Of a stretch of 64,000 bases of DNA, positions 866 through 40,079 are shown piece after piece. This DNA is from a virus. A model generated the notes under the pieces. The model had not been told where the DNA came from. It saw only the letters and a list, made by a program, of their open reading frames with translations, and did not search any database. Both the position numbers and the translations under genes were made by a program. The stretch lies in the IMG/VR virus record IMGVR_UViG_3300045988_183533; one strand, written 5' to 3'. Each line of letters opens with the position of its first letter. The stretch's first letter is position 1.

Positions 866-897
866 CTTAGTATATCGATTTTGCAGCAATTTGCAAG
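866..897 (-). promoter_or_regulatory. A-type sigmaA promoter-like element, copy a (TTGCAA-N16-TATACT read on the minus strand) with palindromic core TTGCAgcaatTTGCAA
   Basis: -35 at 891-896, -10 at 869-874, spacer 16. One of six copies of a conserved ~60-bp element. Confidence 0.5.
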
Positions 898-953
898 CGC
901 AGCTATTTAGTGGCGCTTCAACTTTTTCCGGGGGTTTTATTTTTTCGCTTTAC

Positions 954-1751
954 TTACAGCAAACTCATCTCTGCACGATATGCATCGGCATCGTAGCCCC
1001 AGATATTACAAGCAAAATCGATTGCTGCGTTACCTTCGCTGGGATAACCGTCGTCAACAAAATCTCCTTTGCAAAGCGCATACCAACCACAATTACTTCC
1101 GATATCCTCATCCGCATATTCTACACGAATATTGGCGTGTGGAAATTTACGGCTCAGTTCGACAATGGCGCATGTAGGCGTATTCCAAGGAGTCTTAAAG
1201 TTAACAGTGATTTCCGTATCATTTGTTCTACGGATACTCACATCGAAGACATCCCACTTTACGCCCCAATTTGCGACACGCCAATAATACCACGAGGCAT
1301 ATCCATAGCTTACGGCGTTTTCCAATGTACGTTCCGCCACAGCGTCGAACTCCTCGATATTATAGGGGATACGTTTCAGGTTGATGAGTTTGCTATCTTT
1401 CACATGTTCCAGTTTGGAGCGAGCTTCCGCAGCTTCCTTGCAAACACCAACCATATCTGATGCAGTAAGTTTTTCCTTCCTGTGCAGGAGAAAAGTTTCT
1501 CTGCAAATAGCCTTTCTTACGTTTTCCGGATACTTCTCCGGGTCAATTCCGTATTTATTTACGGCCGCCCATGCGAGCATCCTGTCACATGGCGATACGA
1601 TTTGCAGTGATTCCGGCATAGGAACAACAGACTGAAGCGAAAAATCTTTTTCGCCATCATCGTCTTTTCCCTTGACACGATTCAGAAAATCCTCCAACTC
1701 TGCCTGAGAATTGAAAGAAACAAACATGATATTCATGATATTGTTTGCCAT
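954..1751 (-). CDS. Conserved hypothetical protein (265 aa) with W-rich motif (YGYASWYYWRVANWGVKWDV); possibly DUF1281/Api92-like
   Basis: Long ORF with ATG start; family assignment is from motif recall only. Confidence 0.55.
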   Translation of the reverse strand: MANNIMNIMFVSFNSQAELEDFLNRVKGKDDDGEKDFSLQSVVPMPESLQIVSPCDRMLAWAAVNKYGIDPEKYPENVRKAICRETFLLHRKEKLTASDMVGVCKEAAEARSKLEHVKDSKLINLKRIPYNIEEFDAVAERTLENAVSYGYASWYYWRVANWGVKWDVFDVSIRRTNDTEITVNFKTPWNTPTCAIVELSRKFPHANIRVEYADEDIGSNCGWYALCKGDFVDDGYPSEGNAAIDFACNIWGYDADAYRAEMSLL

Positions 1752-1768
1752 TTATTTTCTCCTTTGTC

Positions 1769-1957
1769 TTACGCGGGTACGCGTACGCAAGAATAGTGGC
1801 AAGCTCCACAATTCAGGAACTTTGCCCGCTTCATCGCCTCATCCAAGCTGAACCGCGTCGCTTCGTTAATGTTGGCAGTATCACTCTTACACTCTACGTA
1901 AAAACGCACATCTCCAAAAAACGGGTCTTTACGGCTTAGCGCATACATATTTTCCAA
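1769..1957 (-). CDS. Small Cys-containing protein (62 aa; CGACHYSC)
   Basis: TTG start at 1957 with AGGAGG RBS (1965-1970). This is the intact copy of a duplicated cassette. Confidence 0.45.
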   Translation of the reverse strand: MENMYALSRKDPFFGDVRFYVECKSDTANINEATRFSLDEAMKRAKFLNCGACHYSCVRVPA

Positions 1958-1984
1958 AATAAGTCCTCCTCAAATATACTTCTC

Positions 1985-2065
1985 TCAGAACTTCTCGAAT
2001 TCCTCGCTCGGCATCTGTGCTTCCGCTTCATCCAGCAGTCTTTTGTAGGAATCGCTGGAAACATT
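1985..2065 (-). pseudogene. 3' fragment (about 27 codons, ...VSSDSYKRLLDEAEAQMPSEEFEKF*) of a paralog of the 2554..3294 gene
   Basis: About 85% nucleotide identity to 2556-2640. It has no start codon and is preceded by in-frame stops. Confidence 0.5.
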
Positions 2066-2094
2066 TCCTTTCCTTATTAGGGTATTTATTTTCG

Positions 2095-2436
2095 TCAAAT
2101 GATAACGGCTTCCAATGCTACAGCACCAGACCCAATTTCATCAGCAACTTTTGATGCTGTTGCAAAATCGTGGTGAGCATATGGCCCTTGCGAATCCATA
2201 TAAGTGACTCGGTAGGCATAATCTGGCTCAAATGATGGGCTTACAATAATGTAAATACCAGTATTTAACTGATATGTGATGGCATCAGCTTTTTCGATTT
2301 GAGCGATGATTTCCTTTCGACGCTTAGCTTCCGACTGCAAGTATTCAGATGCTGCCTCTTTAATAGGGTCACAAAGGAAAATATCGTCTGGATTACCCGT
2401 AATCGGGGGTAGGTCACCCGGATAATAGGATATCAT
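2095..2436 (-). CDS. Hypothetical protein (113 aa), inserted between the two cassette copies
   Basis: ATG 2436 with GGAG RBS; sits exactly between the duplicated segments. Confidence 0.55.
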   Translation of the reverse strand: MISYYPGDLPPITGNPDDIFLCDPIKEAASEYLQSEAKRRKEIIAQIEKADAITYQLNTGIYIIVSPSFEPDYAYRVTYMDSQGPYAHHDFATASKVADEIGSGAVALEAVII

Positions 2437-2505
2437 GCTTTCATCTCCTTCTTTTTGTCTTCAGCGATGACTTTTTGGAACACGTTAATGTTGGTAGTAT
2501 CGCTC

Positions 2506-2541
2506 TTACGCTTTACGGCTCAACACATACATATTTTCCAA
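2506..2541 (-). pseudogene. Truncated second copy of the small Cys ORF (MENMYVLSRKA*), cut short by an approximately 36-nt deletion
   Basis: Same AGGAGG-TTG start context as 1957 and identical first 5 codons. The deletion relative to the 1769..1957 copy creates a stop. Confidence 0.4.
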
Positions 2542-2553
2542 AATAAGTCCTCC

Positions 2554-3294
2554 TCAAATGTACCTCTCCCAGAACTTTTCGAATTCCTCGCTTGGCATCT
2601 GTGCTTCCGTTTCATCCAACAGTCTTTCGTAAGAATCACTGGAAACATCGGTGCCAATAAAATCGGCAACGGCATCATGACCGCGCTGCATCAAGGCGTC
2701 TTTCAGAATCGCCCAACGACATTCGTGAATGGCATCATCCAGCGTTTTGTTGCCAGCAGGCTGCCAATACTCGTCTGTCTGCTGAATTCGATAAAACTCA
2801 TCCAGCGCATCATCAACATTGTTTTCGCTAAGAATATCGTCAATAAAATTGACAGGATAATCCTTGCCGTTGATTTCCACTTCTGCATAACTGAAACAGT
2901 CGTCATCACACGGCATTGCTGCACAGGTGACATCGAAAATTTCGTGCGTTTCCTTGTTTACCTTGCAAGGCAACTGGAACGTTGCTCCTGACTCGAAGTA
3001 AGAAAAGACGACCGCTTCCTCAACATCGTTGTCGGGGCATTTCGCAGACTGGATGAATTCCGGCATAGACAGCACATCAATACTCTCTCTTCGGTCGCCC
3101 ATGGCAGGATAAACCTTCATGATTGTATAACCATCATGCTGCAGCTTTCGGATAGCACGGCACAGGTCGAGATGCATTTCATGAAGACTGATGTCACTGC
3201 CTCGCCCGTCTTTTTTGGTATAGATTTCGACAACTACATCTTCAGAGGTGGTCTGAACAACATAATAGGTCTTATCATTACAAATCTTAAACAT
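2554..3294 (-). CDS. Hypothetical acidic protein (about 246 aa)
   Basis: ATG at 3294 with GGGAG RBS is preferred over the track TTG at 3315. Its C-terminus is duplicated as the fragment at 1985-2065. Confidence 0.6.
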   Translation of the reverse strand: MFKICNDKTYYVVQTTSEDVVVEIYTKKDGRGSDISLHEMHLDLCRAIRKLQHDGYTIMKVYPAMGDRRESIDVLSMPEFIQSAKCPDNDVEEAVVFSYFESGATFQLPCKVNKETHEIFDVTCAAMPCDDDCFSYAEVEINGKDYPVNFIDDILSENNVDDALDEFYRIQQTDEYWQPAGNKTLDDAIHECRWAILKDALMQRGHDAVADFIGTDVSSDSYERLLDETEAQMPSEEFEKFWERYI

Positions 3295-3315
3295 AGCACT
3301 TATCTCCCTTCTCAA

Positions 3316-3513
3316 TCAAACAAAAGCCAGAAAATCGTTGGCCGGAATCTGTCGCTGAGCATCGTAAGCGGTGCCGTAGACATCATCACCCCAACTGATT
3401 TGCACATCCTTCGTCCACAGAGCAAGCTCGGACATTTTTGCTGCCACGGCTTTTGCGGAGCTGCAGATATACTTCTTGACGGCGTTGTTTTCTTTTACGT
3501 TAATTGTAAACAT
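3316..3513 (-). CDS. Small hypothetical protein (65 aa)
   Basis: ATG 3513 with perfect AGGAGG RBS. The track's N-terminal extension would run through a terminator hairpin, so it is rejected. Confidence 0.5.
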   Translation of the reverse strand: MFTINVKENNAVKKYICSSAKAVAAKMSELALWTKDVQISWGDDVYGTAYDAQRQIPANDFLAFV

Positions 3514-3533
3514 TTCAATTTCCTCCTTAACAC

Positions 3534-3567
3534 AACAAAAAAACAGCCATCTCGATTGAGATGGCTG
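3534..3567 (-). terminator. Rho-independent terminator (10-bp stem CAGCCATCTC/GAGATGGCTG, T7 run)
   Basis: Hairpin plus T-run on the minus strand, lying between A-promoter copy b and the RBS of the 3316..3513 gene. Confidence 0.6.
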
Positions 3568-3629
3568 CACGAACAGATTTTGAACTAAAACAAGTCAAGG
3601 AATTGATACTTTGATTTATCTTAGTTTCT

Positions 3630-3660
3630 TAATTATATCTACTTTGCAGCAATTGACAAG
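3630..3660 (-). promoter_or_regulatory. A-type promoter-like element, copy b (TTGTCA-N16-TATAAT)
   Basis: -35 at 3654-3659, -10 at 3632-3637. Confidence 0.5.
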
Positions 3661-3689
3661 ATAGCCACAACAGGAATGCAACATCGTAT

Positions 3690-3911
3690 TCACGGTACTT
3701 TTTCAACGACATCTTCACCGTAAACCACGAACAGACCAGAGCCGTTATCCCAGCGAACCATGATACTGCCGGTATCGTCTATACCTGAAACTGTGCCGAG
3801 TGTTCCAATAGGCGGAGCCTGAATATCATCCATTTTCAGCAGTTTCACGCGTGTTCCGGCTGGATATTCGGCACGGAGCGCAGCAACGATTTCTCGATTT
3901 GGAAAAATCAT
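3690..3911 (-). CDS. DUF4314 family protein (73 aa)
   Basis: PGTRVKL...MDD..AP.P.GT.GTV..IDD.G.I.V.WDNG.S pattern typical of DUF4314, a family common on Firmicutes mobile elements. GAGGTG RBS. Confidence 0.6.
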   Translation of the reverse strand: MIFPNREIVAALRAEYPAGTRVKLLKMDDIQAPPIGTLGTVSGIDDTGSIMVRWDNGSGLFVVYGEDVVEKVP

Positions 3912-3927
3912 AAATACACCTCGCCTC

Positions 3928-4476
3928 TTAGTATGTCACGGTGTCAAAGAACTCCTGACATTCCTCATCGTTCAACACAACACCAAAGTAGGCAACACGC
4001 TCGACGGTGGTTTCCCACACCTTAACGGTACGCGTCATAGGCTGAACGACCCACGAATGCTGTCGCCAAAGGCCATCTTCACTCAGGGCATATCCGGTCG
4101 CAATCTGACATCTGCCACGATTTGCATCCCACAGATAAGCAGCGTTCTGATGGCAACGACAATCTTCGCCCTTCTTCATGTACCTGGAGTTATAAAAAAA
4201 CTGTCCTCGTTCCAGCACTTTCTCCGCATCTTCGTCACGAGTATTGAGCAAAACCTCATCGCCACCGAAAGTTAAAATTCTGTCACGCAGAGCACGCAAA
4301 GTCTTTTTCATTTCGTTTGTGAGCCAAGGCGCGGTGGCGTCCTCGTTGTACAGCTGCATTGCCTCTACTCGTTTTTTCCATTCCTTATCCATTGGATTCC
4401 AGCGGACAGGGTTCGCAACCATATCAGGAGAGGTCATGGGCGTTTTGGCATTCCAACTAAATTTCTTATTTGCCAT
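3928..4476 (-). CDS. Hypothetical protein (about 182 aa)
   Basis: ATG 4476 with AAAGGAG RBS is preferred over the track start at 4497. Confidence 0.55.
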   Translation of the reverse strand: MANKKFSWNAKTPMTSPDMVANPVRWNPMDKEWKKRVEAMQLYNEDATAPWLTNEMKKTLRALRDRILTFGGDEVLLNTRDEDAEKVLERGQFFYNSRYMKKGEDCRCHQNAAYLWDANRGRCQIATGYALSEDGLWRQHSWVVQPMTRTVKVWETTVERVAYFGVVLNDEECQEFFDTVTY

Positions 4477-4490
4477 TATAATACTCCTTT

Positions 4491-4532
4491 TCAACAAAAC
4501 CGCTTACCTTTTTCAGGTAAGCGGTTATATTT
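4491..4532. terminator. Bidirectional hairpin terminator (CCGCTTACC/GGTAAGCGG with flanking T/A runs)
   Basis: 9-bp stem with T-rich runs on both sides. Confidence 0.5.
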
Positions 4533-4535
4533 TGA

Positions 4536-5189
4536 TTATGCGAGCATGGGATATATTTCTTTCTTTACCGCCCTCATAAGAGCGGCAGCATGTGCAGCGT
4601 TTTGTGCATTGCCAACACCTGCGCGAGATATTTTTGGATTCACACGCTCAATGAAATTTTTCTTATACGGGGCAGAAATGCTCCTTGCAGCATCGATAAT
4701 CTGTTTCATGTTTTCAGCGTCGATTTTTTGCTGAACGCATAATTCTTGTAACCGTGTGCAAAAAGCGTCTTTGTTGTCCCGTACAGAAGTAGAATGATTT
4801 TTTGTTTCTTTATGTGGGATGACTGCCTCACAGGCTATCCGTTTAACGCTTAACCATTTACTGCACATGGTCTGAATAAGCCCGTCATATCCCTTGTCTG
4901 CCGACACGATGATATAATTACTTTTCTTTCCTGTTGTGCAAAGACTACCAAGTTTAGCAACAACGTGGAAATCCATGCTGTTTTTCCCTGCATTGGAGAC
5001 GCAGAACTCTACTTGGTTGACTGGGTACTTTGCCAGAAAAACCTGCAATTCTTTAAGTGACATGTATGTGGCTTCCGGACCGATGAAGATAATCAGCTTG
5101 TCCTTTTTGGTTTTAAAATGCACTACATTTAGCCATTTCTTTTGGACATTCTCGGTATCTATCAGCCAAATGGTTCGAGTGCAGCTCAC
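4536..5189 (-). CDS. NYN-domain (LabA/PIN-like) putative nuclease
   Basis: IWLIDTENV ... NYIIVSADKGYDGLI motifs resemble the NYN D-x-E-N and SxD acidic clusters. Start is uncertain: GTG at about 5189 after GGGGGTGA. Confidence 0.5.
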   Translation of the reverse strand: MSCTRTIWLIDTENVQKKWLNVVHFKTKKDKLIIFIGPEATYMSLKELQVFLAKYPVNQVEFCVSNAGKNSMDFHVVAKLGSLCTTGKKSNYIIVSADKGYDGLIQTMCSKWLSVKRIACEAVIPHKETKNHSTSVRDNKDAFCTRLQELCVQQKIDAENMKQIIDAARSISAPYKKNFIERVNPKISRAGVGNAQNAAHAAALMRAVKKEIYPMLA

Positions 5190-5194
5190 ACATT

Positions 5195-5491
5195 TCACCC
5201 CCACACTTCGGTGACTTTTCTGGGGATTCCGTGCTTGTCGATACACTGCCGGTAAATTGTAAACTTACTGTTCGGGTGCGCCTTCATATAGTCAGCGCGT
5301 GCCGCGTCCGTGTTCGCAATCAGCAGATTTTTATCAGCAATAAGAACGCTTTCCCATCCGGAATCGAGAAGCGTACTGGCAACATCCTTGAAAGATACGT
5401 CTGCAGGCGTGTCGCACTTACAAACCCCTCGTGCGATAGGATGCGCAGTGGCAATGATTTTTGCTGCCGTTATCACAGTCTCGTAACTCAT
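5195..5491 (-). CDS. Hypothetical protein (98 aa)
   Basis: ORF-track ORF in an operon with neighbouring genes. Confidence 0.5.
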   Translation of the reverse strand: MSYETVITAAKIIATAHPIARGVCKCDTPADVSFKDVASTLLDSGWESVLIADKNLLIANTDAARADYMKAHPNSKFTIYRQCIDKHGIPRKVTEVWG

Positions 5492-5503
5492 AGTGTCCTC
5501 CTA

Positions 5504-5761
5504 TCACGCCACCTCGAAATACTTTTCGACATCGCTGTTGATAGAACGCGCAGGAACACCCTTGGTCTTCTCACTGTAGTAGCCACGCTTTTTCAGCGTG
5601 TTCTTAACAATAGAAATGCTCTTGTCGCTGCGCATGGTACGCTTTCTCTTTTCGATGCGTGCAGAACGAATGCGCTTTTCGTACTTCTGCATACGAACAG
5701 CGTCCATAATGATAGGAGCAGTAGTCTCCGCGACATACTCGTTAAAAGTTTTCATATTCAC
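5504..5761 (-). CDS. Small basic hypothetical protein (85 aa)
   Basis: ATG 5761 with GGAGGA RBS. Confidence 0.5.
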   Translation of the reverse strand: MNMKTFNEYVAETTAPIIMDAVRMQKYEKRIRSARIEKRKRTMRSDKSISIVKNTLKKRGYYSEKTKGVPARSINSDVEKYFEVA

Positions 5762-5785
5762 ATATCCTCCGTAATATATTATTTT

Positions 5786-5830
5786 TCTAAATAAAAAAGG
5801 CAGCTATTTTCTCAAAAATAGCTGCCTTTA
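5786..5830 (-). terminator. Rho-independent terminator (14-bp stem AAGGCAGCTATTTT, T-run)
   Basis: Strong hairpin plus TTTTTTATTT on the minus strand, downstream of A-promoter copy c. Confidence 0.65.
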
Positions 5831-5915
5831 GTACATTGTGATTGGCGATAATTCAATCATACACGCCCATAAAACTCTGGTACGATGCATTGTGTGATTT
5901 TATTTATCGGATAAC

Positions 5916-5947
5916 TATATATTATTAACTTTGCAGCAATTTGCAAG
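5916..5947 (-). promoter_or_regulatory. A-type promoter-like element, copy c (TTGCAA-N16-TAATAT)
   Basis: -35 at 5941-5946, -10 at 5919-5924. Confidence 0.5.
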
Positions 5948-6002
5948 TACAGGATACAATAAAAAGCGCCTCCCATATTACGGGGAAGCGCCTTAGTGTT
6001 AT

Positions 6003-6602
6003 TTATTCTTTGTTGTCCGAAGAAATTTTCGGAGACTTCTTCTTCTCAACGAAAGCATCAATCGTTCGGCCGAAACGATTAAGAAGCATTGCGCCAAGAT
6101 AAAGAATGATGCCGCTAATCATGATACCAACATCAAGCGTCTCAAATCCTGCAAAACTCTTGCAATAAATAGAACTAACTGCGAGAGCGCCAAGCGTTGG
6201 CAGCGAAGCAATCGTTACCGTAAGTGCCGCATACACAACACTATTCAGAACAGTACCAATACTTGCAATGATGCCGCGCTTTTTAAAAGTGCGCTGCTTA
6301 TCGTAGGACATCTGATAAGCCCCGATAAGACTTGGTTCACGAATAATGTCGCGCAGATGCAGCAGACACCACGCCAAAACAGCACACCCGATGCCGCAGC
6401 CGACCTTATAGGCGCTCATGCGAGAACCCAACAGGTCATTTGCGTTGACGGGAACGATGAACGCCAGAATGTTGAACAGGACGGCAAACAAGACGAACAT
6501 TGCCATGTGGGGATTCTTGGCAGTGTTGCGAGCCTCGTTCTTTGCCTTACTTGCGACTTCCTCGGTCTGATTGTGAATTTTCACATTGAGAATCTTTTCC
6601 AT
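6003..6602 (-). CDS. Integral membrane protein (199 aa, 4-5 TM)
   Basis: Hydrophobic segments with ATG start. Confidence 0.55.
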   Translation of the reverse strand: MEKILNVKIHNQTEEVASKAKNEARNTAKNPHMAMFVLFAVLFNILAFIVPVNANDLLGSRMSAYKVGCGIGCAVLAWCLLHLRDIIREPSLIGAYQMSYDKQRTFKKRGIIASIGTVLNSVVYAALTVTIASLPTLGALAVSSIYCKSFAGFETLDVGIMISGIILYLGAMLLNRFGRTIDAFVEKKKSPKISSDNKE

Positions 6603-6649
6603 TTTTTACCTTTCCTTTCGTGCGAACGATTTAGTTATAAATCGTTTTT

Positions 6650-6961
6650 TTAGTCGTGATAGCGGTGCGAAATACCGTATATGATTGCGAGCGCTAATGC
6701 AATGTAGATATAAAGATATCCCTTCTCAATCATGTTCAGAATCGCAATAGTTAAGTACGAAAAAGCACCGCAAGAAGAAGCGGCACTCATTTTGCCGAAA
6801 AAGAACATCACCATCTGGGAAGCGATTGCTGCAGGAATGGTAATCTGGAAGCACCAAGCCTCAATGATTCCGTTCCAGTCGAGAGCGGCGATGAAGCTGA
6901 CTCCCATGGCAAAAGTCCATAAAAACGCGGCAACGAGAACGATACTGTCAAACACATTCAT
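6650..6961 (-). CDS. Small membrane protein (about 103 aa, 3 TM)
   Basis: ATG 6961 with GGAGG RBS is preferred over the track start at 6976. Confidence 0.55.
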   Translation of the reverse strand: MNVFDSIVLVAAFLWTFAMGVSFIAALDWNGIIEAWCFQITIPAAIASQMVMFFFGKMSAASSCGAFSYLTIAILNMIEKGYLYIYIALALAIIYGISHRYHD

Positions 6962-7011
6962 AGTAAATACCTCCATAATTTAAAGAGTTGTAAACATCGG
7001 ACATCTATATA

Positions 7012-7053
7012 AACAGCAAAAAGCCGCCGATGGAACAATCCATTGGCGGCTCA
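7012..7053 (-). terminator. Rho-independent terminator (12-bp stem AGCCGCCGATGG)
   Basis: Hairpin plus TTTTTGCTGTTT on the minus strand. Confidence 0.6.
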
Positions 7054-7102
7054 GTTGCCGATTGCAATAATACAGTTAAATCATTTGATTTATGTTATGT
7101 TT

Positions 7103-7133
7103 CAATTATATTAACTTCGCAGCATAATGCAAG
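7103..7133 (-). promoter_or_regulatory. A-type promoter-like element, copy d (TTGCAT-N16-TATAAT)
   Basis: -35 at 7127-7132, -10 at 7105-7110. It directly abuts the sortase stop codon. Confidence 0.5.
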
Positions 7134-7139
7134 TGTTTT

Positions 7140-8111: not shown

Positions 8112-8122
8112 AATACATCACC

Positions 8123-9286: not shown

Positions 9287-9300
9287 GAAAATCTCCTTTA

Positions 9301-9338
9301 TAAAAATACCCCGGCAGACAGGTTGCCTACCGGGGCAG
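9301..9338 (-). terminator. Rho-independent terminator (12-bp stem with two G-U pairs, TATTTTTAT)
   Basis: Lies after the SecE-like stop at 9343. Confidence 0.55.
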
Positions 9339-9342
9339 TATT

Positions 9343-9594
9343 TTAAACGAACAGGAACGGAACGTGAAGCAACAGAGCGTATGCCGCATCCATAATGCCA
9401 ATAATAACGGCGGATACAGCACTCACAACAAGAACTGCTCCGGTTCGATGGAGCGTGTTGTGCATACTCGGCCAAGTCACATTTTTGGGTGCAACCAAAT
9501 TGTGCAGCTTCTTAGGCGTGCTCTTGACGAAAGAAGGAATTGCCTTCACGAAATTCGCAATAGCCGTTCCTACCTTTTTCAGTTTATATTTCAT
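9343..9594 (-). CDS. secE: SecE-like small translocon subunit (83 aa)
   Basis: Start MKYKLKK with AGGAGG RBS; ATGA overlap with the upstream gene. KNVTWPS...TGAVLVVSAVSAVIIGIMDAAY matches the SecE C-terminal TM signature. Confidence 0.6.
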   Translation of the reverse strand: MKYKLKKVGTAIANFVKAIPSFVKSTPKKLHNLVAPKNVTWPSMHNTLHRTGAVLVVSAVSAVIIGIMDAAYALLLHVPFLFV

Positions 9595-30049: not shown

Positions 30050-30080
30050 TTATTGTATCTACTTTGCAGCAAATAGCAAA
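30050..30080 (-). promoter_or_regulatory. A-type promoter-like element, copy e (TTGCTA-N16-TACAAT)
   Basis: -35 at 30074-30079, -10 at 30052-30057. Confidence 0.45.
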
Positions 30081-30698: not shown

Positions 30699-30730
30699 AT
30701 ATTATACCACATTTCGCTTTAATGGTCAAC
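30699..30730 (-). promoter_or_regulatory. B-type promoter (TTGACC-N17-TGTGGTATAAT)
   Basis: -10 at 30701-30706, -35 at 30724-30729. Confidence 0.65.
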
Positions 30731-31651: not shown

Positions 31652-31683
31652 ATATTATACCACCAAAAGCATAAATAGTCAAC
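31652..31683 (-). promoter_or_regulatory. B-type promoter (TTGACT-N17-TGGTGGTATAAT)
   Basis: -10 at 31654-31659, -35 at 31677-31682. Confidence 0.65.
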
Positions 31684-31761
31684 AAAGAATAGCGCCCCAC
31701 AGATTTACCTGTGGAGCGCTATATGTTATCTCTTACGCGGAGTAGAGATTATTTCAGTTGG

Positions 31762-34700
31762 TTACTGCTTCTTTTCCTCGGTTTTATCCTCGGTCTTTTC
31801 AGCAGCTTTTTCTTCGCTATCGCCCTTCTTCTTCTTAACGATGACAAATGCGCCAACGCCAATCAGAGCAACAACAACGATAACAGGAACGATGATGTCT
31901 GCGCCAAAACCAACGCCAGTCTTGTAGTTGACTACAACAGGTGCCGGAGTGGGAGCGGGTTCATTCTTGACTACAGGAGTCGGAGTCGGTCTGCTTTCTT
32001 CCGGAGGATTCTCCAGCTTAACACTTGCTACCCGAACATCACCGTAGTTGCCTGCCTTATCGACTGTACGGGTCACAATGTAACCAGTCCAATCGGGGCT
32101 CAGCTTGAAGGTAACATAACCGTTGTCCTTATCAATGTTTGTAACATTGACAGTCTCGAACTTGGTTTCGTCGAAGGTGTAATCGCCATCAGCACTCTTG
32201 GCAATAGCAGAACCATTGACCTTGTAATACTGAATCTTAGCGACACCGGAGTTGTACTCGCCATCCAGAGCGGAGATAGCAGGAACGGAATCCTTGACCT
32301 TTACAACAGGCACGAAGTCGGGGTCTTCGGTATCATCCTTGCCACCGTTTTCGTCGGGAGTAGCAACGACATCGTTACCGTTTTCATCACCGGTCTCGTC
32401 GCCGGTTGTGAAGAGAGCGGGCTTACCATGAGCAATACGAAGCGTAGTGGCTTCGGTCTTGTCATTGGTCGTTTCGGTCTTTTCGGACTCGGCGGGAACC
32501 TTCTCATCTGTACCGGATTCGGTTTCATCCTTCTTACCGGAATCTTCCTTCTTGTCGGTATCGTCCTTCTTATCGTCGTCCTTTTCGGGAGCCTTGCCAG
32601 TCTCTTCACCAGTAATGAACACATTGATGGTGCTCTCGAACTTGACGAACTTCTCGTTCAGCAAATCGGTCTTATTGGTGGAATCAACCTTATCGGCAGC
32701 GAAAGCAGAAGCAACGACAGGAGCTTCGGTATCAACAGATGTGGTGATAGTTCCCATCTCGGTAATGGCACCGGTCTTCAGGTCAATCAGGTAATAGGTA
32801 GAAGTAACCTTCTCACTATTAGCGGAAATGACCATCTTCTCGGCCCACTCAGCATCGGTCAGGGAATCGCTGGTTCCGATTGCGTAACCCTTAGGAGCGA
32901 TAACTTCAACCTTAGAGTTGAAGTACAGGCCACTCAGGTCATCAGTCGTCTTCTTGGTAACCTCAACAGGCTTACCGGTCTTTTCGTCAGCCACAGTACC
33001 AACGATAGTTGCGGGCTCTACATCGGAAAGATGCAGACGCTGAACTTCGAGGTCTCCGGTGGTAGGCAGGTAATTGTAGTTGTCGTAAGCGCCGCCAACA
33101 TACTTGAAAGCGTCCTTCGTCAAGCCAACATTACCGAAAATACCATCGATGCTGGAAGCAACAATGAGTTCGAAGGAAGGCAACTTAACGGTTTCAGCAG
33201 TCTCGTCGAAAGCGTAACCACTGGTCTTGATTTCGGGAATCTCCGTCTTGGTGCCATACAGCTTGACGACGGGGTTCGGGTCGAGAGTAACCGTCAGGTC
33301 TTTGCGAGCGATAACGAACTGACCATCGGCTTCGTTCTTATCAGCATCAACGACCTTGATGGTTACTGCGTAATTCTGCTCGACAGCGGCATCATAATCA
33401 GAGGTAACGGTGTAGGTGTAAGTACCAGCGTTCTTGACGTTTTCAGTCTTGAACTGGCTGTCACTCTCCACGCCGTCATCGCCGCTTGCGATATCAGGAG
33501 TCAGAGTCGCCTTTGCATCAGCAGTCAAGGGAGCAGTCTGTGCATTGTCGGTGGTCTTGTCGTTCTCGAAAGGAGTATAAACAAGTGCCATTTTCAGGCC
33601 CAGAGAATCAGGCTTGACAGCTGCACCGTGCGTACCATCGCCATTGGTGGCAACAGCATTTACGGTAAAGTCGGGGTTGGTGGTGTCGCCGTAAACGATA
33701 TCCTTCGGCTCGGTGACAGTGACTTCGACCAGACGCTCGCCAATGGTGTAGACGCCATTGACAATCGTAATCAGATAGTCATCGTTGTCATAAGAACCGA
33801 CCATATCGTAAGCGCCGTAGTCCTTCACGGACTCGGGCACGCTCTCCGCAACCAGAGAAGCAGCACCATCAACAGACTTCATGGAAATCTCTTCGGCAAC
33901 CGCATTCTCAACATCCTTCTTGGTGATGCTGATAATAGCTTTCAGGTCATCGCCATTCACGATAGTCTTCTTATCGGCATCGCCAGTATAGGTGAGGGTA
34001 TTGCTCAGTTCGGCCATTTCATTGCCGTAGACAGAACCAACAGTGCCGATGGTCCAAGTCAGAGGACGCTGAGTGACCGTGTAAGTGCCGTTCATGGCAG
34101 TTACCAGATAATCCTGATAAGAAGCCTGACCGACGCGGTGAGCCAGACCGGAGAAGGAAGGAACGATGTCGTAGCCTCCGACATGGCTTGCAGAAGTGAC
34201 GAGGCACAGGTTCGTGCCTTCCAGAATATCACCATTGACCAGAGCTGCCTTGGCAGTGTCGCCAGTGTATTCCAGAACGTTCACTGTGCCGTAATCAGAC
34301 CAATCTTCAACAGCAACATCGTCGCCATAGATGGAAGTCTGGGGCTTAGCAGTGATAGTGATGGGACGCTTGTTGATAACGAAATCAACAGGGGCGTAAA
34401 CAAAGGTGTAGTTGTTTGCGGCGGCATTCTCAACATTTGCAGGAACGACCTTGCCGGTACCAGCGTGAGAAGCTACCGTTGCAGGAGCACCCTCAGCGTC
34501 AGTAAAGTTGAAGGTCAGGTTCGCAACGCTCAGAACACCAGCGTCATCAGGAGTAGTGTTGCCCTTGACGGGTTTTACAACGAATCCATCGAAAATCAGG
34601 TTATCGCCGGAGAGAACAGGGTTCTCATCGCCGTAAATCTTGCTCTGAGCTGCCAGAGTGACATTCAGAGTAGCAGGAGTGATTTCGAAGGTGTTGTTTA

Positions 34701-37700
34701 CGCGGGTGATGTTGAAGTTGACATCGTCACCTTCAATAATCATCGGATGCTTGCCGACATCCTCACCAGCATCGGTGCCAGCGTCAGGGCGAACAACCTT
34801 CAGGTTTGCGAGGTCACCTGCATTCTTGCTTACATAGTAAGCGCCGTCGCCAGTTGCAGTCCAAGTCAGTTCGGGGTCAGCCTCGCCGTAGACCTTCTTC
34901 TGGCCTTCATCAACAACCACGATTACATCGCGCTTATCGACATGCAGAGAACCATCCACATAGACGATGGGGTCATAGTTCTTTGCGCCATTGTTTTCCA
35001 GACCGCTCATGGTGATGACATAATCGCCAGCAGCAGGACGAGCGGGAATCTCGGACAGAGAACCGTCAGCATTCTTGATGTTGTAGACAACCGAGCCAGT
35101 GAATGCGGAAGCAACGGTGTCATTGTTCTTCAAGCCAGTAACGGTGTAGCTGAACGTGGGAACGGTGCCGCCATAAATCATGGAATAACCGCCAGCCACA
35201 GTAAAGGTGACCTTAACGGGCTTGATGGTCAGAGTAGCAACTTCCATAGCTTCGGGCTCGGTGGTGGAAGAACCAACGTCGACGGAAGTGCCGGAGCCAG
35301 TCACGATGGTGATGGCGTAGTTGCCGTACTTGTTGTACAGAGTGGAGCTGATGGGGTATTCACCAACATCCTCACCGGCTTTGCGAGTGACAGAGCCGCT
35401 CAGAGCACCAGTAGTCAGTTCCAGCGTATTCTTCTTCAGACCATCGTTGGAAATGTTGCCGGAAATCTCGCTGTAAGAGAATGCGGGGTCTGCATCGCCG
35501 TAATCCTTCTCGTAGTTGGAGAAAGTCAGGGTGATGGGACGAGGAGTGATGGTGATGGTAGAATCAATCACCGTCAGGTCGTAGTTGGCAGGCTGTGCGT
35601 AGATAGCTTTCAGAGCATAAGTGCCAACGCTTGCGGAAGCAGAAGTTGCACCGGAAGTCAGGGTAATGCCCTTAAGAATCTTTTCGGCTTCTGCTGCCTG
35701 AACATCAGTAGTAGTCAGCAGACCAGTGCCGCCCTTGATGTAATCCTTCACGTTCATAGAAGTGAGGGTCTCACCATAGGTCTTTTCGGTTTCGAGCAGG
35801 TTGATAACGGCAGTACGCTTATTGATGGTGAAGCGAACATCATTGGTGAAGCTGATACGATAGTTCTTTGCCATCGTCTGCTCATAGATGTTACCGCTGT
35901 AAATCGGATAAGTGCCAGCGTTCTCGCCTGCTTCACGGCTCAGACGAGCCTGTGCAAAGTCGGCCTTGGGTTCTGCGAAGCTGGTGGTGTTGTAGTCGAA
36001 GATGACATAGGTATCGTTGACTGCAAAGCTGGGGTCAGTCTCGCCGTAAGTCTTGGACAGACCATAGCGAGGAGTGATGGTCAGGGGCATCTGATGAACA
36101 ATCAGCATGTTCTTGCCATCGGGCTCAGACAGCTTAACGCTGTTTGCAGGCTGGTTATCCAGACGGAAGGTCAGGTTGTAAGAGCCTGCATCGTACAGAC
36201 CAGAAGCGTTCGCAGTAGCCTCAACAGCGATACGAACAACGCCCAGAGAAACATCCTTGCCGTCCATCTTGATATTGACGGTTTCGCCATCGTGGTAAAT
36301 CTGAGTGCCATCGGAGGTATTCACGTTGACGGAAACTTCCTTGGCGATGGTATCGGGCTTCTTCTCACCGTAAGTAGTCTGCAGTGCGTTGAAGGTGACA
36401 GAGACATCAGCCTCGGTAACTTGGAACGTGGCCTGCGGAGCAATCGTTACGATGTAGTTGGGGTTCTCATCATAGGAGATGGTAGCTTCATAGTTGCCGA
36501 CAACCGTAGTGGGGTCTTCCCACTTGGTCAGGTCGATGTGGATGTTCAGCGGGCTGCCCTGCGGGTCAACCACATTGATAGCCTGAGAACCGGTCTCGTC
36601 ATACAGCGCATAGCTGGGGGTATTCTTACCGGCAACGCCGTACTTACGGACGCTGTTGGTAGTACCCTTGATGGTGACAGGCAGTGCATTGATAGTCAGC
36701 GTACCGCTTGTACCATCGCTGTAAGTTCCGGTATAAACGATGTTGTAGTTGGGGTTGGTGTAACCGGAAACAACAATAGGATAGGTACCGACACCAGTCA
36801 GCTTACCAACAGTATTGTCAACGCCATACTTGATGGTGACAGTGCCGCCCAGAGAAGCGACGGTATCATGGATGCCGATTTCATCGTTGCTTGCGAAGTT
36901 CTTGTATTCCAGTGCGCCGGTAATGTCGGCATCGCTGGGATTCTCGGAACCATACAGACGTTCACGGTTCGGAACGGTGATAGTCAGAGTACGCTTGGTG
37001 ATAGTGTACTTATCGGGGGCATTGAAGGTGATGTCGTAGTTCTTGGCGATTTCAGCAGTCTGGAACTGTGCATCGCTGTAAGCGTAAGAACCAACGGTCT
37101 CGCCGACCTCACGGGTCACAACGCAGCCAGCAAAGTCGGAACCAACACGGCCGCCCTTGCCATTGACGGGGTCAAGAGTAAAGGCAACGCCGCCCTTGGC
37201 ATCACTGTCGCCGTAAACCTTCGTCTGACCACCCATCACATTGATGGCGATAGGACGCTTGGTGACGGTCAGCTTGCTGCTGACAAAACGAACCAGATAG
37301 TTGTCGTAACGGTCGTAGTTCTTGCCATCGGCATTGGGGTCCCAGTCAGAAGACCAACGCTCCTGAGAAGCACCCTGCACAGATGCGCTGACGGTGTATT
37401 CGCCAACATTGGCTGTTGTAGGAGTACCGCTGTTGCCAGCCGCATCTACCATAGTAAAGCCAAGCTTGTCCTCGGTCAAACCGATGCTTGCCTGTGTATC
37501 GTTCAGCTTGAAACCTTCGATGGATTTAATCTTACCGGAACGAGCAGCGCCATACATTGCGGACAGGTCATCGAGAGTAACAGTCAGCATTGCGGGATGG
37601 ATGATGTACTTGCTGTTGATGACCTTGACGTCATAGTAAGCAGTGCATGCAGGGGGGACTTCGACAGTCATCGGATATTCGCCAACATTCTTATTGTCGA

Positions 37701-39771
37701 TATCCTGACGCTGTGTTGTCAGAACCATGCTGACCAGCTTGTTCACACCGTCATCAGCGGTGATGTCGGAACCGGCGACAATACGCTTATCGGAGGCCAC
37801 TGCCTGAGCAGCACCGTTATAAGCAACAGCGTCGAAGGTAATGGTGGAAGACTTGCCCTTTTCAGCCTCACCATAGATGGCATCAATCTGGTCGTTGGTG
37901 ATGGTTACGTTACGCTTGGTAATCTCAAACGTTGCGGTAGCAAGGTTGATGTTATAACCATTGATAGGCGCATTCGTCTGGATATTGCCGATTGTAACAG
38001 TGTAGCCACCGGGAGCAGAGGTGATGCTGGGCAGAACAACGGTGGGTTCACCGCTCAGGCCAAGCATTTCTTTCAGAGCAACTGCGTTGGACTTGTGTTC
38101 ATTATTGGTCTTATACTCGAAATTGGTTTTATCGGTATCAGACCAACCGGTAATCACGAAGTCAACCTGAGGATTCTGCTGACCATACTGACGAGTGGCT
38201 TTGCTGCCGGTCGTCTGTACGCCATCATTGCCCTTGAAGACAAATACGGGAGTCAGGGTCAGAGTCTTTTCGGAAACGACAACATACACATCGCCGGTAT
38301 TGGGCTGAATGTCGATGTTGTAGTTCGTGTTGCTCTTCGCGGAGGAACCTAAGATGATTTTGTAAGAACCGGTAGTGTCCTTATCAAAGTTCTCTGTGGT
38401 CAGAACATCCGCAGGAAGCAGGTCGCCGTCAACCAGACCACCATTGGTATCCATAACGGTGTAGTTAATCTGGCTGATAGTATTGCCCTTCGTAACATAG
38501 GTGGTATGAGGGACAATGTAAATCTGACGTTTGTTGATAGTCACACCCGTGTCATTGCGGATATTCTTGGAGGAATCCAAGTTAGAACCGTCAATGATGG
38601 TATAGTTCAGACCATTCACAGTAACACTTGTTGCACCCGTATCGACATAAGTCGGATAAGTACCGGCATTGCAATGAATGTCTGTAGGATTCTGGCCGTC
38701 GCCGTCAGCCGGAGCGTACATGATGAAGCTCAGACCGTCGATAGCTGCCTGAATATCCTTTTCAACTTCCTGAGAAGTACGGGAATCAGCAGTGCTGTAT
38801 TCGATGGTCAGGCCCTTGGACTTGAAGGAATCACCGTAGGTGTAGGTAACAGTCTGGGGCAGGATACGAATAACGTTTTCCTGACCGCCAATCTTGGTGT
38901 ACTGAATACCAGTACCAGCGGCAATCTGCTTACCAGTCTCAGCGGCAGTGATTGCCTGATAGTCACCGATGACAGTGGTTGAACCGCCGCCACCAAATGC
39001 GCTGGCACCGCTTGTGTCTATGGGGTTTTCCTGACGGTCACAAACCTGCAGATACAGGTCAGACATATCAAGGTATGCATTCATGACGGGCTCGGCGACC
39101 TGCTCATCCTCGCTCAGAGAATAATACATGTCCTCAATGGGTTCCCAGTCATAAACTGCATCCAGTTCCTCAGTGCGACGCGTGACCATCGCATCAAGAA
39201 CCGCATTTTCCTTGTCAGCCTGCCATGCCTTGCTTGCAAGGCCGAAGTTGTTTGCAGCAGTCAGAATTTCATCTTTACGGCTTACGAGAGCGTTGGCCGC
39301 ATCGATAAATGCCTGTGCCGCTTCGCTGATGTTGCTGCCAGTGGTAGAAGCTTCGCTGGAAGTGCTGGTGCTTGCACCAGTATCAGAGGCAGCACTGTTT
39401 GCGGAGGCAGTGGTCGTCTCGGCCCCTGCCTGACTTGTAGCCTCAGAAGCAACATTGCTCGTTACAGAAGTATCGTTGGACGCGGAACTTGCTGTGTCGG
39501 TAACATCGCTTTTCGGCGCGGGAGTAGTAGCGGAAGAGTCGGAGTTTGTTGTCGTAGTGCTGAGCGCATCAGTTTCCTTCGGAGCTTCCTCACTCTGCGT
39601 GATTCCACTCGCGCTCTCTACTGCATAAGCAGTGACAGGAGCAAACTGAGACAGGCACATTGCTACGGCGACAATCGCACTCAAAAACCGCTTACGAGGT
39701 TTCTGCATGTTAGTTGCCCTCCTAATAATGTGAGTGTTCTGTGGCTTGACCACAGTCGGATTTATATACAC
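31762..39771 (-). CDS. Giant cell-wall-anchored surface protein (2669 aa): signal peptide, S/T-rich stalk, at least 14 MBG-type YGD-motif repeats, Ig-like domains, C-terminal sorting signal VNYKTGVGFG plus TM plus KKKK
   Basis: Repeated K-x-YG-D/E-x-D/N-P ... TY ... NY-x-I core motifs. The C-terminal tripartite sorting signal matches that of the 7323-aa protein. Confidence 0.8.
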   Translation of the reverse strand: MYINPTVVKPQNTHIIRRATNMQKPRKRFLSAIVAVAMCLSQFAPVTAYAVESASGITQSEEAPKETDALSTTTTNSDSSATTPAPKSDVTDTASSASNDTSVTSNVASEATSQAGAETTTASANSAASDTGASTSTSSEASTTGSNISEAAQAFIDAANALVSRKDEILTAANNFGLASKAWQADKENAVLDAMVTRRTEELDAVYDWEPIEDMYYSLSEDEQVAEPVMNAYLDMSDLYLQVCDRQENPIDTSGASAFGGGGSTTVIGDYQAITAAETGKQIAAGTGIQYTKIGGQENVIRILPQTVTYTYGDSFKSKGLTIEYSTADSRTSQEVEKDIQAAIDGLSFIMYAPADGDGQNPTDIHCNAGTYPTYVDTGATSVTVNGLNYTIIDGSNLDSSKNIRNDTGVTINKRQIYIVPHTTYVTKGNTISQINYTVMDTNGGLVDGDLLPADVLTTENFDKDTTGSYKIILGSSAKSNTNYNIDIQPNTGDVYVVVSEKTLTLTPVFVFKGNDGVQTTGSKATRQYGQQNPQVDFVITGWSDTDKTNFEYKTNNEHKSNAVALKEMLGLSGEPTVVLPSITSAPGGYTVTIGNIQTNAPINGYNINLATATFEITKRNVTITNDQIDAIYGEAEKGKSSTITFDAVAYNGAAQAVASDKRIVAGSDITADDGVNKLVSMVLTTQRQDIDNKNVGEYPMTVEVPPACTAYYDVKVINSKYIIHPAMLTVTLDDLSAMYGAARSGKIKSIEGFKLNDTQASIGLTEDKLGFTMVDAAGNSGTPTTANVGEYTVSASVQGASQERWSSDWDPNADGKNYDRYDNYLVRFVSSKLTVTKRPIAINVMGGQTKVYGDSDAKGGVAFTLDPVNGKGGRVGSDFAGCVVTREVGETVGSYAYSDAQFQTAEIAKNYDITFNAPDKYTITKRTLTITVPNRERLYGSENPSDADITGALEYKNFASNDEIGIHDTVASLGGTVTIKYGVDNTVGKLTGVGTYPIVVSGYTNPNYNIVYTGTYSDGTSGTLTINALPVTIKGTTNSVRKYGVAGKNTPSYALYDETGSQAINVVDPQGSPLNIHIDLTKWEDPTTVVGNYEATISYDENPNYIVTIAPQATFQVTEADVSVTFNALQTTYGEKKPDTIAKEVSVNVNTSDGTQIYHDGETVNIKMDGKDVSLGVVRIAVEATANASGLYDAGSYNLTFRLDNQPANSVKLSEPDGKNMLIVHQMPLTITPRYGLSKTYGETDPSFAVNDTYVIFDYNTTSFAEPKADFAQARLSREAGENAGTYPIYSGNIYEQTMAKNYRISFTNDVRFTINKRTAVINLLETEKTYGETLTSMNVKDYIKGGTGLLTTTDVQAAEAEKILKGITLTSGATSASASVGTYALKAIYAQPANYDLTVIDSTITITPRPITLTFSNYEKDYGDADPAFSYSEISGNISNDGLKKNTLELTTGALSGSVTRKAGEDVGEYPISSTLYNKYGNYAITIVTGSGTSVDVGSSTTEPEAMEVATLTIKPVKVTFTVAGGYSMIYGGTVPTFSYTVTGLKNNDTVASAFTGSVVYNIKNADGSLSEIPARPAAGDYVITMSGLENNGAKNYDPIVYVDGSLHVDKRDVIVVVDEGQKKVYGEADPELTWTATGDGAYYVSKNAGDLANLKVVRPDAGTDAGEDVGKHPMIIEGDDVNFNITRVNNTFEITPATLNVTLAAQSKIYGDENPVLSGDNLIFDGFVVKPVKGNTTPDDAGVLSVANLTFNFTDAEGAPATVASHAGTGKVVPANVENAAANNYTFVYAPVDFVINKRPITITAKPQTSIYGDDVAVEDWSDYGTVNVLEYTGDTAKAALVNGDILEGTNLCLVTSASHVGGYDIVPSFSGLAHRVGQASYQDYLVTAMNGTYTVTQRPLTWTIGTVGSVYGNEMAELSNTLTYTGDADKKTIVNGDDLKAIISITKKDVENAVAEEISMKSVDGAASLVAESVPESVKDYGAYDMVGSYDNDDYLITIVNGVYTIGERLVEVTVTEPKDIVYGDTTNPDFTVNAVATNGDGTHGAAVKPDSLGLKMALVYTPFENDKTTDNAQTAPLTADAKATLTPDIASGDDGVESDSQFKTENVKNAGTYTYTVTSDYDAAVEQNYAVTIKVVDADKNEADGQFVIARKDLTVTLDPNPVVKLYGTKTEIPEIKTSGYAFDETAETVKLPSFELIVASSIDGIFGNVGLTKDAFKYVGGAYDNYNYLPTTGDLEVQRLHLSDVEPATIVGTVADEKTGKPVEVTKKTTDDLSGLYFNSKVEVIAPKGYAIGTSDSLTDAEWAEKMVISANSEKVTSTYYLIDLKTGAITEMGTITTSVDTEAPVVASAFAADKVDSTNKTDLLNEKFVKFESTINVFITGEETGKAPEKDDDKKDDTDKKEDSGKKDETESGTDEKVPAESEKTETTNDKTEATTLRIAHGKPALFTTGDETGDENGNDVVATPDENGGKDDTEDPDFVPVVKVKDSVPAISALDGEYNSGVAKIQYYKVNGSAIAKSADGDYTFDETKFETVNVTNIDKDNGYVTFKLSPDWTGYIVTRTVDKAGNYGDVRVASVKLENPPEESRPTPTPVVKNEPAPTPAPVVVNYKTGVGFGADIIVPVIVVVALIGVGAFVIVKKKKGDSEEKAAEKTEDKTEEKKQ

Positions 39772-39850
39772 CCTTACCTACTCCCTAGTGTGCAGCCTTG
39801 ATTGTAGATAAGAAAGTATATCAAAACACAGGCAATCAAATTGCATATTT

Positions 39851-39882
39851 ACAATATGCCACAAAAAGACATAAAAGTCAAT
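39851..39882 (-). promoter_or_regulatory. B-type promoter for the MBG-repeat giant gene (TTGACT-N17-TGTGGCATATT)
   Basis: -10 at 39853-39858, -35 at 39876-39881. Confidence 0.55.
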
Positions 39883-39895
39883 CAAAAATTTCGGC

Positions 39896-39958
39896 ACAAA
39901 AAGGCCACCCATGAGCGCATAATCGTATTTCGTATGGACATGGATGGCTGAAACATTA
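39896..39958 (-). terminator. Hairpin with T-run (CCATCCATG...CATGGGTGG, about 30-nt loop); weak terminator or structured RNA element
   Basis: Sits between A-promoter copy f and the B-type promoter of the 31762..39771 gene. Confidence 0.35.
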
Positions 39959-40008
39959 ACACAGAACCTGCTTGACTATTATTTATTCTGAAAAATTTGA
40001 TGCTGTAT

Positions 40009-40039
40009 TTATATCTATTATATTACTCACTTTGCAGCA
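40009..40039 (-). promoter_or_regulatory. A-type promoter-like element, copy f (TTGACC-N16-TAATAT)
   Basis: -35 at 40033-40038, -10 at 40011-40016. Confidence 0.45.
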
Positions 40040-40079
40040 GCGGTCAATAATAATTCTGAAAAACAGAAGTTTTTTATGC

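Follow-up and report, generated by a model that had tools for sequence, protein, structure and literature searches.

We analyzed a 64,000-nt stretch of DNA from the IMG/VR record IMGVR_UViG_3300045988_183533 (hereafter, the window), which by its gene content is part of a "Hodor" conjugative megaplasmid of human-gut Bacillota. Six intergenic repeats in the window are tentatively interpreted as copies of a regulated promoter class of this megaplasmid, with at least 31 copies on one plasmid. Most of them follow a common order of promoter, 60-125-nt leader, intrinsic terminator, ribosome-binding site and gene. Sequence, folding and comparison show a plasmid-specific promoter class of the sigma-A type with an invariant site, a conserved leader that includes a covarying hairpin in one subfamily, and a terminator shortly before the gene. 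We assign a probability of about 45% to the interpretation that these are regulated promoters with a terminated leader and factor-dependent read-through.

An earlier, sequence-only reading of the window had proposed six minus-strand copies of a promoter-like repeat in intergenic positions, and all six were found on that strand, where it had placed them and outside genes. The 12-mer TTGCTGCAAAGT occurs with at most one mismatch at 878-889, 3641-3652, 5928-5939, 30061-30072 and 40029-40040, and with two mismatches at 7114-7125. Five occurrences at this threshold compare with approximately 0.28 expected by arithmetic for the two strands of 64 kb (128 kb). The composite motif GCTGCAAARTNNNTAYAAT matched eight times, against 2.0 ± 1.3 matches in shuffled sequences (none of 100 shuffles reached eight), and its six best matches correspond to the same six sites. 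Moreover, a profile derived from relatives' copies alone returned exactly these sites when run on the window, all on the minus strand, with E-values from 1e-12 to 6e-4.

Outside the window, the exact motif has 23 occurrences in IMG/VR, all on a few large contigs of the Hodor family. The looser pattern TGCTGCAAAGT-N16-26-GATAAAT gave 62 distinct matches in IMG/VR with a sharp peak at a spacing of 19-20 nt (45 of the 62), and the matches at other spacings are chance occurrences in coding DNA of unrelated contigs. Altogether, a profile search in approximately 0.9 Mb of relatives' DNA identified 47 distinct cassette classes; a single 346-kb contig, covered over no more than 87 kb, has at least 31 of them. 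Cassettes with the exact core are present in relatives of 74% SecY identity, and those at 59% SecY identity have TGTTGCAAAGT or TGTGACAAAGT as a drifted core. Among 185,579 representative genomes, the motif had 49 scattered matches, nearly all of them single and located in coding DNA of unrelated phyla; since these fit chance, the motif appears to be specific to the Hodor plasmid lineage. When the literature was searched for TGCTGCAAAGT, nothing but unrelated PCR primers came up. Among the genes behind the cassettes are nrdD, thyX, genes for a 5'-nucleotidase and a VWA protein, and many of no assigned function. A single control system, not described before, is probably common to dozens of plasmid genes.

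A chromosomal site with the full consensus was noted in a metagenome-assembled genome of rumen Clostridia (RGIG5109; L069:7640-7700), where a promoter of the sequence TTGCAT-TT-TGCTGCAAAGT-AAG-TATAAT, followed by GGATAAATGA, lies upstream of a queA-like gene and lacks a leader terminator. About one full-consensus match of this type is expected by chance among the 49 genome matches, so that it may mean nothing.

The 47 classes define the promoter logo tc-TTG-c-nn-tT-TGCTGCAAAGT-naa-TAtAmT. The TTG of the -35 element is present in 46-47 of the 47 classes at each position, and T-12, A-11 and T-7 are found in all of them. In every class the spacer is 16 bp long and is almost filled by the invariant 11-13-mer site tTTGCTGCAAAGT. 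An A preceded by a pyrimidine and located 7 nt past the -10 element (39 of 47 classes) is the predicted transcription start. Co-oriented open reading frames (ORFs) preceded by a Shine-Dalgarno sequence start within 450 nt of this position in 46 of 47 classes, and all copies share the orientation of their genes. Two of the window copies (copies 1 and 2 in order of position) were also listed by a consensus promoter scan. Given that TTG, the 16-bp spacing and TAnnnT represent housekeeping-sigma geometry, the reading of the repeats as promoters is well supported at the sequence level.

Several other promoter types were considered and rejected. A sigma-54 promoter is a misfit in its GG/GC spacing, a MerR-type spacer activator needs a spacer of 19-20 bp, and an extended -10 would require a TG at -15/-14 that is missing here. 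A T4-late-type TATAAATA promoter within the downstream box lacks its first T in most copies, and the box covaries as RNA. A tandem second promoter at the box has no -35 element at the right distance, and a single-strand (Frpo-like) promoter was dismissed because the -35 element lies inside no hairpin.

The spacer 11-mer is conserved more strongly than either hexamer. Conservation beyond the polymerase contacts indicates a dedicated DNA-binding factor, and the invariant site may be bound by one that is plasmid-encoded. The earlier proposal of an operator within the promoter is therefore reasonable as far as a conserved putative protein-binding site is concerned; however, the palindrome it named, TTGCA-N5-6-TGCAA, is not the conserved feature. 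It is perfect in only two of six window copies; across the family, variation of the -35 hexamer limits it to just 17 of 47 classes. Conserved instead is the dyad TTTGC-T-GCAAA inside the core, adjoined by an asymmetric invariant GT. One of two XRE regulators of the window (21182-21412 and 18788-19486) had been suggested as the binding protein, but nothing ties either of them to the site, and no cassette adjoins either gene.

A conserved box downstream of the -10 element had been described in five of the six copies. It was found in these five (GATAGATAAAATACA, GATAAATCAAA, GATAAATAAAATCA, CATAAATCAAA and ATATAAATACAG) and is absent from the copy at 30050-30080, but it appears to be the 5' end of a short leader RNA, and often the 5' strand of a covarying hairpin, rather than a DNA box. 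The sequence-only reading had not seen that an intrinsic terminator closes the leader immediately before the gene, a feature that changes the functional interpretation. Leader terminators with stems of 9-14 bp and 5-8 U were predicted in approximately 38 of 47 classes and behind five of the six window copies, in the latter as a hairpin and U-run within 45-125 nt. Copies 1-4 have a strong hairpin with a U-run 45-120 nt past the -10 element and leader fold z-scores from -4.7 to -6.2; three of the terminators (824-795, 3568-3543 and 5829-5796) were listed by the consensus scan. In most classes, a gene with a Shine-Dalgarno sequence begins 10-60 nt beyond the U-run. The consensus scan found no sigma-70-like site between the terminator and the start codon of copies 1-4.

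The box starts 2-5 nt after the predicted +1 and has the A-rich consensus (A)AGAUAAAU(C/A)AAA. In subfamily a, which includes copy 2, the box AAGAUAAAUCAAA forms the 5' strand of a hairpin (P1) that begins between +1 and +4, pairing with a downstream UUAUCUU-like strand. All 11 representatives of this subfamily fold a 5'-terminal stem (z from -1.5 to -4.5). A covariance model built from three members was used to align 17 distinct sequences; 95.6% of the cells of this alignment pair, compared with 35-44% when the partners are slid, and 15 of 24 pairs change on both sides, a level reached in none of 500 shuffles. The outermost P1 pairs vary among UA, CG, AU and UG. The loop and interior of P1 differ in sequence and length (14-50 nt), the stem base alone being conserved. 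On the 3' side of the hairpin, an always-unpaired AUUCAAAAUC(U/G) box, the single-stranded UUCAAAAUC of the predicted leaders, precedes the terminator. Subfamily b, which includes copy 1, has no 5' hairpin and begins with an A-rich stretch, AUCC(G/A)A(U/A)AAAUAAAA, followed by the same linker box and terminator.

The terminator apex YYAUCUC-loop-GAGRUGG occurs in 18 of 47 classes and, within the window, at copies 1 and 2 only. When all of IMG/VR was searched with the linker-terminator pattern TTCAAAATC-N6-24-ATCTC-N3-7-GAGRTGG, matches were confined to Hodor contigs (36 stretches with 30 distinct sequences), and the core promoter motif was found 52-67 nt upstream in 30 of the 30 distinct cases. 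The reverse coupling fails: a minority of these promoters, copy 5 among them, run straight into their genes. In Rfam 15, the whole window had no match at the gathering score, and only chance-level matches appeared in 700-7300 at E<=5. The predicted leader RNA is thus a new motif, absent from Rfam, located in front of at least 30 transcription units that include nrdD and thyX. Among known RNA devices, a riboswitch was rejected in view of the non-conserved P1 interior, leader-peptide attenuation because the leaders have no AUG or Shine-Dalgarno sequence, and a classical 2:3 antiterminator because the two strands are not complementary. A CRISPR-repeat-like or guide-like RNA or an RNA anti-CRISPR does not fit either, since box and hairpin come in the wrong order and are only 3-10 nt apart.

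Individual copies, all on the minus strand, illustrate this organization. The copy 1 promoter (869..896) consists of the -35 element TTGCAA (891-896), the core TGCTGCAAAAT (878-888) and the -10 element TATACT (869-874). Its leader of approximately 74 nt (789..862; subfamily b; predicted start A862; fold z -5.7) contains the A-rich box at 844-858, the single-stranded AUUCAAAAUC at 828-837, a terminator stem-loop at 795-824 with the apex CUAUCUC-GUAA-GAGGUGG, and the U-run at 789-794; the next ORF occupies 305-760. In the copy 2 promoter (3632..3659), TTGTCA is followed by the core TGCTGCAAAGT (3641-3651) and TATAAT (3632-3637). The 89-nt leader of this copy (3537..3625; subfamily a) scored 107.5 bits with the covariance model. 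It comprises the P1 hairpin (3612-3625 with 3584-3597), the single-stranded UUCAAAAUCUG at approximately 3574-3584, and a terminator at 3543-3568 with the apex CCAUCUC-AAUC-GAGAUGG and a U-run, with AAGGAGG and an ATG about 20 nt farther on.

Copy 3 has its promoter at 5919..5946 (TTGCAA, core TGCTGCAAAGT at 5928-5938, TAATAT at 5919-5924) and a leader of approximately 122 nt (5790..5912; fold z -4.7), in which a downstream UUAUCG is the pairing partner of the box CCGAUAAAUAAAAUC; the terminator at 5796-5829 and its U-run are followed by GGAGG and an ATG about 30 nt past the U-run. The copy 4 promoter (7105..7132; TTGCAT, -10 TATAAT at 7105-7110) carries the core TGCTGCGAAGT at 7114-7124, which has one mismatch to the 11-mer (two over the 12-mer of the sequence-only reading at 7114-7125). 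The leader of copy 4 is approximately 81 nt long (7018..7098; fold z -5.3), its box ACAUAAAUCAAAUGAUUUA makes a small 5' hairpin, and the terminator at 7022-7051 with its U-run precedes GGAGG and an ATG at 6976.

The copy 5 promoter (30052..30079; TTGCTA, core TGCTGCAAAGT at 30061-30071, TACAAT) has neither the box nor a leader terminator and leads directly to an ORF with a lipoprotein-like signal peptide. The copy 6 promoter (40020..40047; TTGACC, core TGCTGCAAAGT at 40029-40039, TAATAT) is followed by a leader or short RNA of approximately 115 nt (39898..40013) with the box AUAUAAAUACAG, the hairpin GCCAUCCAUG...CAUGGGUGGC at 39904-39948 and a U-run; the loop of its terminator hairpin is larger than in copies 1-4. 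Between this RNA and the gene for a 2669-aa protein lies a promoter of a second class, class B (TTGACT-N14-TGTGGCATATT, approximately 39853-39885).

Two local observations belong to these copies. At copy 1, the -10 element and the first transcribed bases make up a DNA palindrome, TATACT-a-AGTATA (862-875, minus strand), which spans the predicted start; a start-spanning palindrome is also present in many subfamily-b cassettes of relatives (TATGCT-ata-AGCATA in others) and is limited to part of the family. Behind copy 5 (29985-30045, minus strand), the 5' untranslated region has an AGGAGG that no start codon follows at the usual distance, as well as a GC-rich hairpin lacking a U-run. The ORF of copy 5 appears to begin at an ATG near 29985, with the lipoprotein-type signal peptide MKNVMRVLAFVSALLCVGC.

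Since no other promoter was found between terminator and gene, the default output of a cassette would be a short terminated RNA, and the gene would be expressed only by read-through. This read-through may be factor-dependent and proceed by attenuation or antitermination, with the factor recruited to the DNA site in the promoter, as lambda Q is at PR', or else to the conserved boxes of the leader RNA. A protein-dependent mechanism is favored by the lack of a conserved alternative pairing, of a leader peptide and of an aptamer-like core. That the leader module is strictly tied to a single promoter type agrees with recruitment at the promoter, and an RNA-binding antiterminator would be just as compatible with the conserved RNA boxes. 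A more specific version is replicon-wide, promoter-coupled processive antitermination, in which a factor is loaded at TGCTGCAAAGT and/or at the leader RNA (P1 base, UUCAAAAUC and the AUCUC/GAGAU hairpin) of more than 30 promoters. We regard this version as possible but on the doubtful side. If it were true, each promoter would give only a short stable RNA when the factor is absent, and a Q- or nut-like mechanism would be scaled to a whole 350-kb replicon with a new cis-acting RNA motif.

Several points weigh against factor-dependent read-through. Start sites, termination efficiency and read-through are themselves predictions. No regulator candidate emerged from phmmer queries with sigma regions 2 and 4, NusG, RfaH and SigF against the ORFs of the approximately 0.9 Mb of relatives' DNA, which covers part of the plasmid, other factor types not having been searched. 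A conserved antiterminator pairing was not found in the leaders, where the 3' strand of P1 and the 5' arm of the terminator are both pyrimidine-rich and cannot pair. Approximately 20% of this promoter class has no leader terminator, and the RNA features are not uniform, subfamily b being devoid of the 5' hairpin. The covariation was scored on an alignment fitted to the model structure, which favors that structure. Finally, the tight linkage of promoter and leader could result partly from duplication of whole cassettes.

The same sites could be operators of a plain global repressor regulon, in which the terminators are constitutive, partly leaky attenuators or insulators that would also block read-in from genes upstream, and no dedicated antitermination factor exists. 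This explanation is close to the sequence-only reading and quite possible, if somewhat unlikely on balance. A protein bound at the spacer site would exclude RNA polymerase from the core promoter, the hexamers alone resemble those of a competent sigma-A promoter, and the dyad TTTGC-T-GCAAA would suit a dimeric binder. At copies 1, 2 and 4, the upstream gene has no separate terminator, so that the leader terminator could serve it as well. However, GC-rich stems of 11-14 bp with 5-8 U do not look leaky, the leader module is never found behind the other promoter class, and insulation alone leaves unexplained why the boxes and the apical hairpin are conserved across diverged paralogues. Alternatively, the cassettes might encode a family of trans-acting small RNAs of 60-125 nt with their own promoter and terminator, in which UUCAAAAUC or the A-rich regions act as a seed or protein sponge and the downstream genes are incidental. 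The succession of promoter, 5' hairpin, single-stranded conserved stretch and intrinsic terminator is classic for such RNAs, and in a few cases (for example, copy 6 and classes 20, 26, 27, 29 and 36) the following gene is remote or under a separate promoter; this explanation is plausible for a minority that includes copy 6. As an account of the family it is improbable, given that most classes have a Shine-Dalgarno gene 10-60 nt past the U-run with no promoter of its own, that in classes 34 and 43-45 genes are driven directly by this promoter, and that no target complementarity was identified.

We give little credence to the idea that a plasmid-encoded alternative sigma factor or dedicated polymerase uses the conserved 22-bp block as its promoter. 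It would explain why the 11-mer is more conserved than the hexamers and why the motif is confined to the Hodor family, with chance-like matches elsewhere, but the combination of TTG, 16 bp and TAnnnT is exactly that of the housekeeping sigma, and neither the window nor the examined relatives' DNA (partial plasmid coverage) yielded a sigma homologue. The least credible account, and a very improbable one, is a mobile intergenic repeat with an outward promoter, similar to repetitive extragenic palindromic (REP) sequences or miniature inverted-repeat transposable elements. The many dispersed, always intergenic copies of a compact unit are reminiscent of such a repeat, and the sequence-only reading had accordingly spoken of a mobilised cassette. 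This description is contradicted by the absence of terminal inverted repeats (only terminator hairpins were found), by the abrupt end of conservation just upstream of the -35 element and by the strict co-orientation with genes. Recent transposition is also made less likely by the saturated divergence of the copies outside the functional blocks. Nor does the motif look like part of an opposite-strand terminator or REP-like element, the case that had been named as refuting the promoter: it forms no hairpin itself, and there are no opposite-strand genes at these sites.

The proposed regulated promoters share elements with several known systems, but none of these is a full match for the cassettes, whose copy number is far higher. 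In the KorA/KorB operators of the IncP plasmids RK2/RP4 and the C1 operators of phage P1, the nearest analogues of the DNA site, global repressor sites are dispersed over the replicon. As in the Hodor cassettes, a short site (11-17 bp) overlaps core elements of many promoters and defines a replicon-wide regulon. In contrast to those systems, the Hodor site fills the spacer between -35 and -10, is only partly symmetric (TTTGC-T-GCAAA plus the invariant GT), occurs at 30 or more promoters and is coupled to a leader terminator, which the KorA/KorB and C1 systems lack. At lambda PR'-qut-tR', the nearest analogue of a promoter with a terminated leader, the Q binding element lies in the promoter, the 6S RNA ends at tR' and the genes are reached by Q-dependent read-through. 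The likeness to the Hodor cassettes, which here is one of anatomy, comprises a site between -35 and -10, a conserved initial transcribed region, a short terminated default RNA and genes beyond the terminator. However, lambdoid phages have one such promoter whereas the Hodor plasmid has dozens, and the covarying 5' hairpin is not needed by Q. A clear -10-like pause element is also not evident in the transcribed box, where A(U/A)AAAU at approximately +6 to +12 is A/T-rich with no consistent xAxxxT register.

Antitermination at RNA sites is represented by lambda N/nut (boxA and boxB), the HK022 put RNA and conAn1/conAn2 of the pLS20-type Gram-positive conjugative plasmids. These have conserved 5' leader RNA elements before terminators, as do the cassettes, which likewise are on a conjugative element of Bacillota. 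Unlike the cassettes, whose leader is tied to one promoter type, they act at one or two sites per element and need no strict promoter type; moreover, the hairpin loop of the cassettes is variable and therefore not boxB-like. RfaH/ops and LoaP resemble the cassettes in that a conserved leader element of approximately 12 nt marks many operons for a specialised anti-termination factor. The ops element, however, is found in long leaders and not at +3 to +15, and no NusG paralogue was found in the examined relatives' DNA. The stoperators of mycobacteriophage L5 are a looser analogue, with tens of short intergenic sites in one orientation relative to transcription; those lie mostly outside promoters and block elongation, whereas every Hodor site is in a promoter spacer.

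The second stereotyped promoter class of the window, class B, has approximately 10 copies of TTGAC(t/c)-N14-TGTGGTATAAT-ATA and combines a near-consensus -35 element with an extended -10. Class-B promoters were found on the minus strand at 12786-12796, 14307-14317, 26902-26912, 28819-28829, 30701-30711, 31654-31664, 39853-39863, 62211-62221 and 63984-63994, and on the plus strand at 18714-18724. They drive both giant genes of the window, several small genes and the plus-strand gene at 18788. Class-B promoters have neither the spacer site nor a leader terminator and run straight into their genes. In a relative of 59% SecY identity (L073), TGTGGTATAAT occurs four times in 21 kb and the core of the cassette promoters (class A) is nearly absent. 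Plasmid lineages seem to vary in the balance of the two promoter classes.

Hodor plasmids are conjugative megaplasmids of human-gut Bacillota with replicons of more than 300 kb; they were described in 2026, are widely carried in human gut metagenomes and are represented in viral databases (PMC12934698). Their hallmarks include proteins of 7309-7704 aa and approximately 2642 aa and a SecY/SecG/SecE/trigger-factor/sortase B gene module (PMC12934698). The main text of that description nowhere mentions promoters, terminators, intergenic regions, regulation, sigma factors or antitermination (PMC12934698). The ORF list of the window has giant ORFs of 7323 aa and 2669 aa, the latter with MBG domains. 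Pfam matches identified a SecY homologue (9861-11201) and an FKBP/trigger-factor protein (8123-9475), both on the minus strand. A SecE match and a weak SecG match (E 0.0024) among the window proteins likely come from two small minus-strand ORFs between 9343 and 9845, an assignment based on synteny with relatives. The 323-aa ORF at 7140-8111, adjoining the trigger-factor gene, had no Pfam match, and no sortase test was made for it. A PIN protein, a ParM/Alp7A-like actin, a flotillin and a Dam methylase are also encoded. Orthologues of the window SecY with 90-100% identity are located on contigs of 270-382 kb, and the closest named chromosomal homologue is from Gemmiger (49% identity). A BLAST comparison of 20 kb of the window with phage and plasmid collections gave no match, an exact-protein lookup for the ParM-like gene product returned no record, and a PHROGs comparison of ten window proteins was uninformative.

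Two long antisense ORFs, 31711-38352 (2213 aa) and 46742-55699 (2985 aa), lie on the plus strand opposite the 2669-aa and 7323-aa genes, respectively, and are probably shadow ORFs that reflect how repetitive the giant genes are in composition. Hodor plasmids commonly carry TnpB genes (PMC12934698). In the distant relative L077, a TnpB/IS605 OrfB-type gene (14226-15329) lies a few hundred bases upstream of the cassettes at L077:15472 and 16677.

The cassettes constitute a cis-regulatory family that had not been described before, in a class of megaplasmids that itself was described recently; they follow known regulatory principles rather than representing a new kind of system. Together with class B, they provide the first regulatory map for Hodor plasmids, with two sharply distinct promoter classes. 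The invariant 11-13-bp site should allow a global regulator to be found by DNA pull-down, and public paired metatranscriptomes already exist for testing read-through. If read-through is factor-dependent, the cassettes would give a mobile element an antitermination or attenuation regulon of unusual size and would offer a handle for switching plasmid genes on and off.

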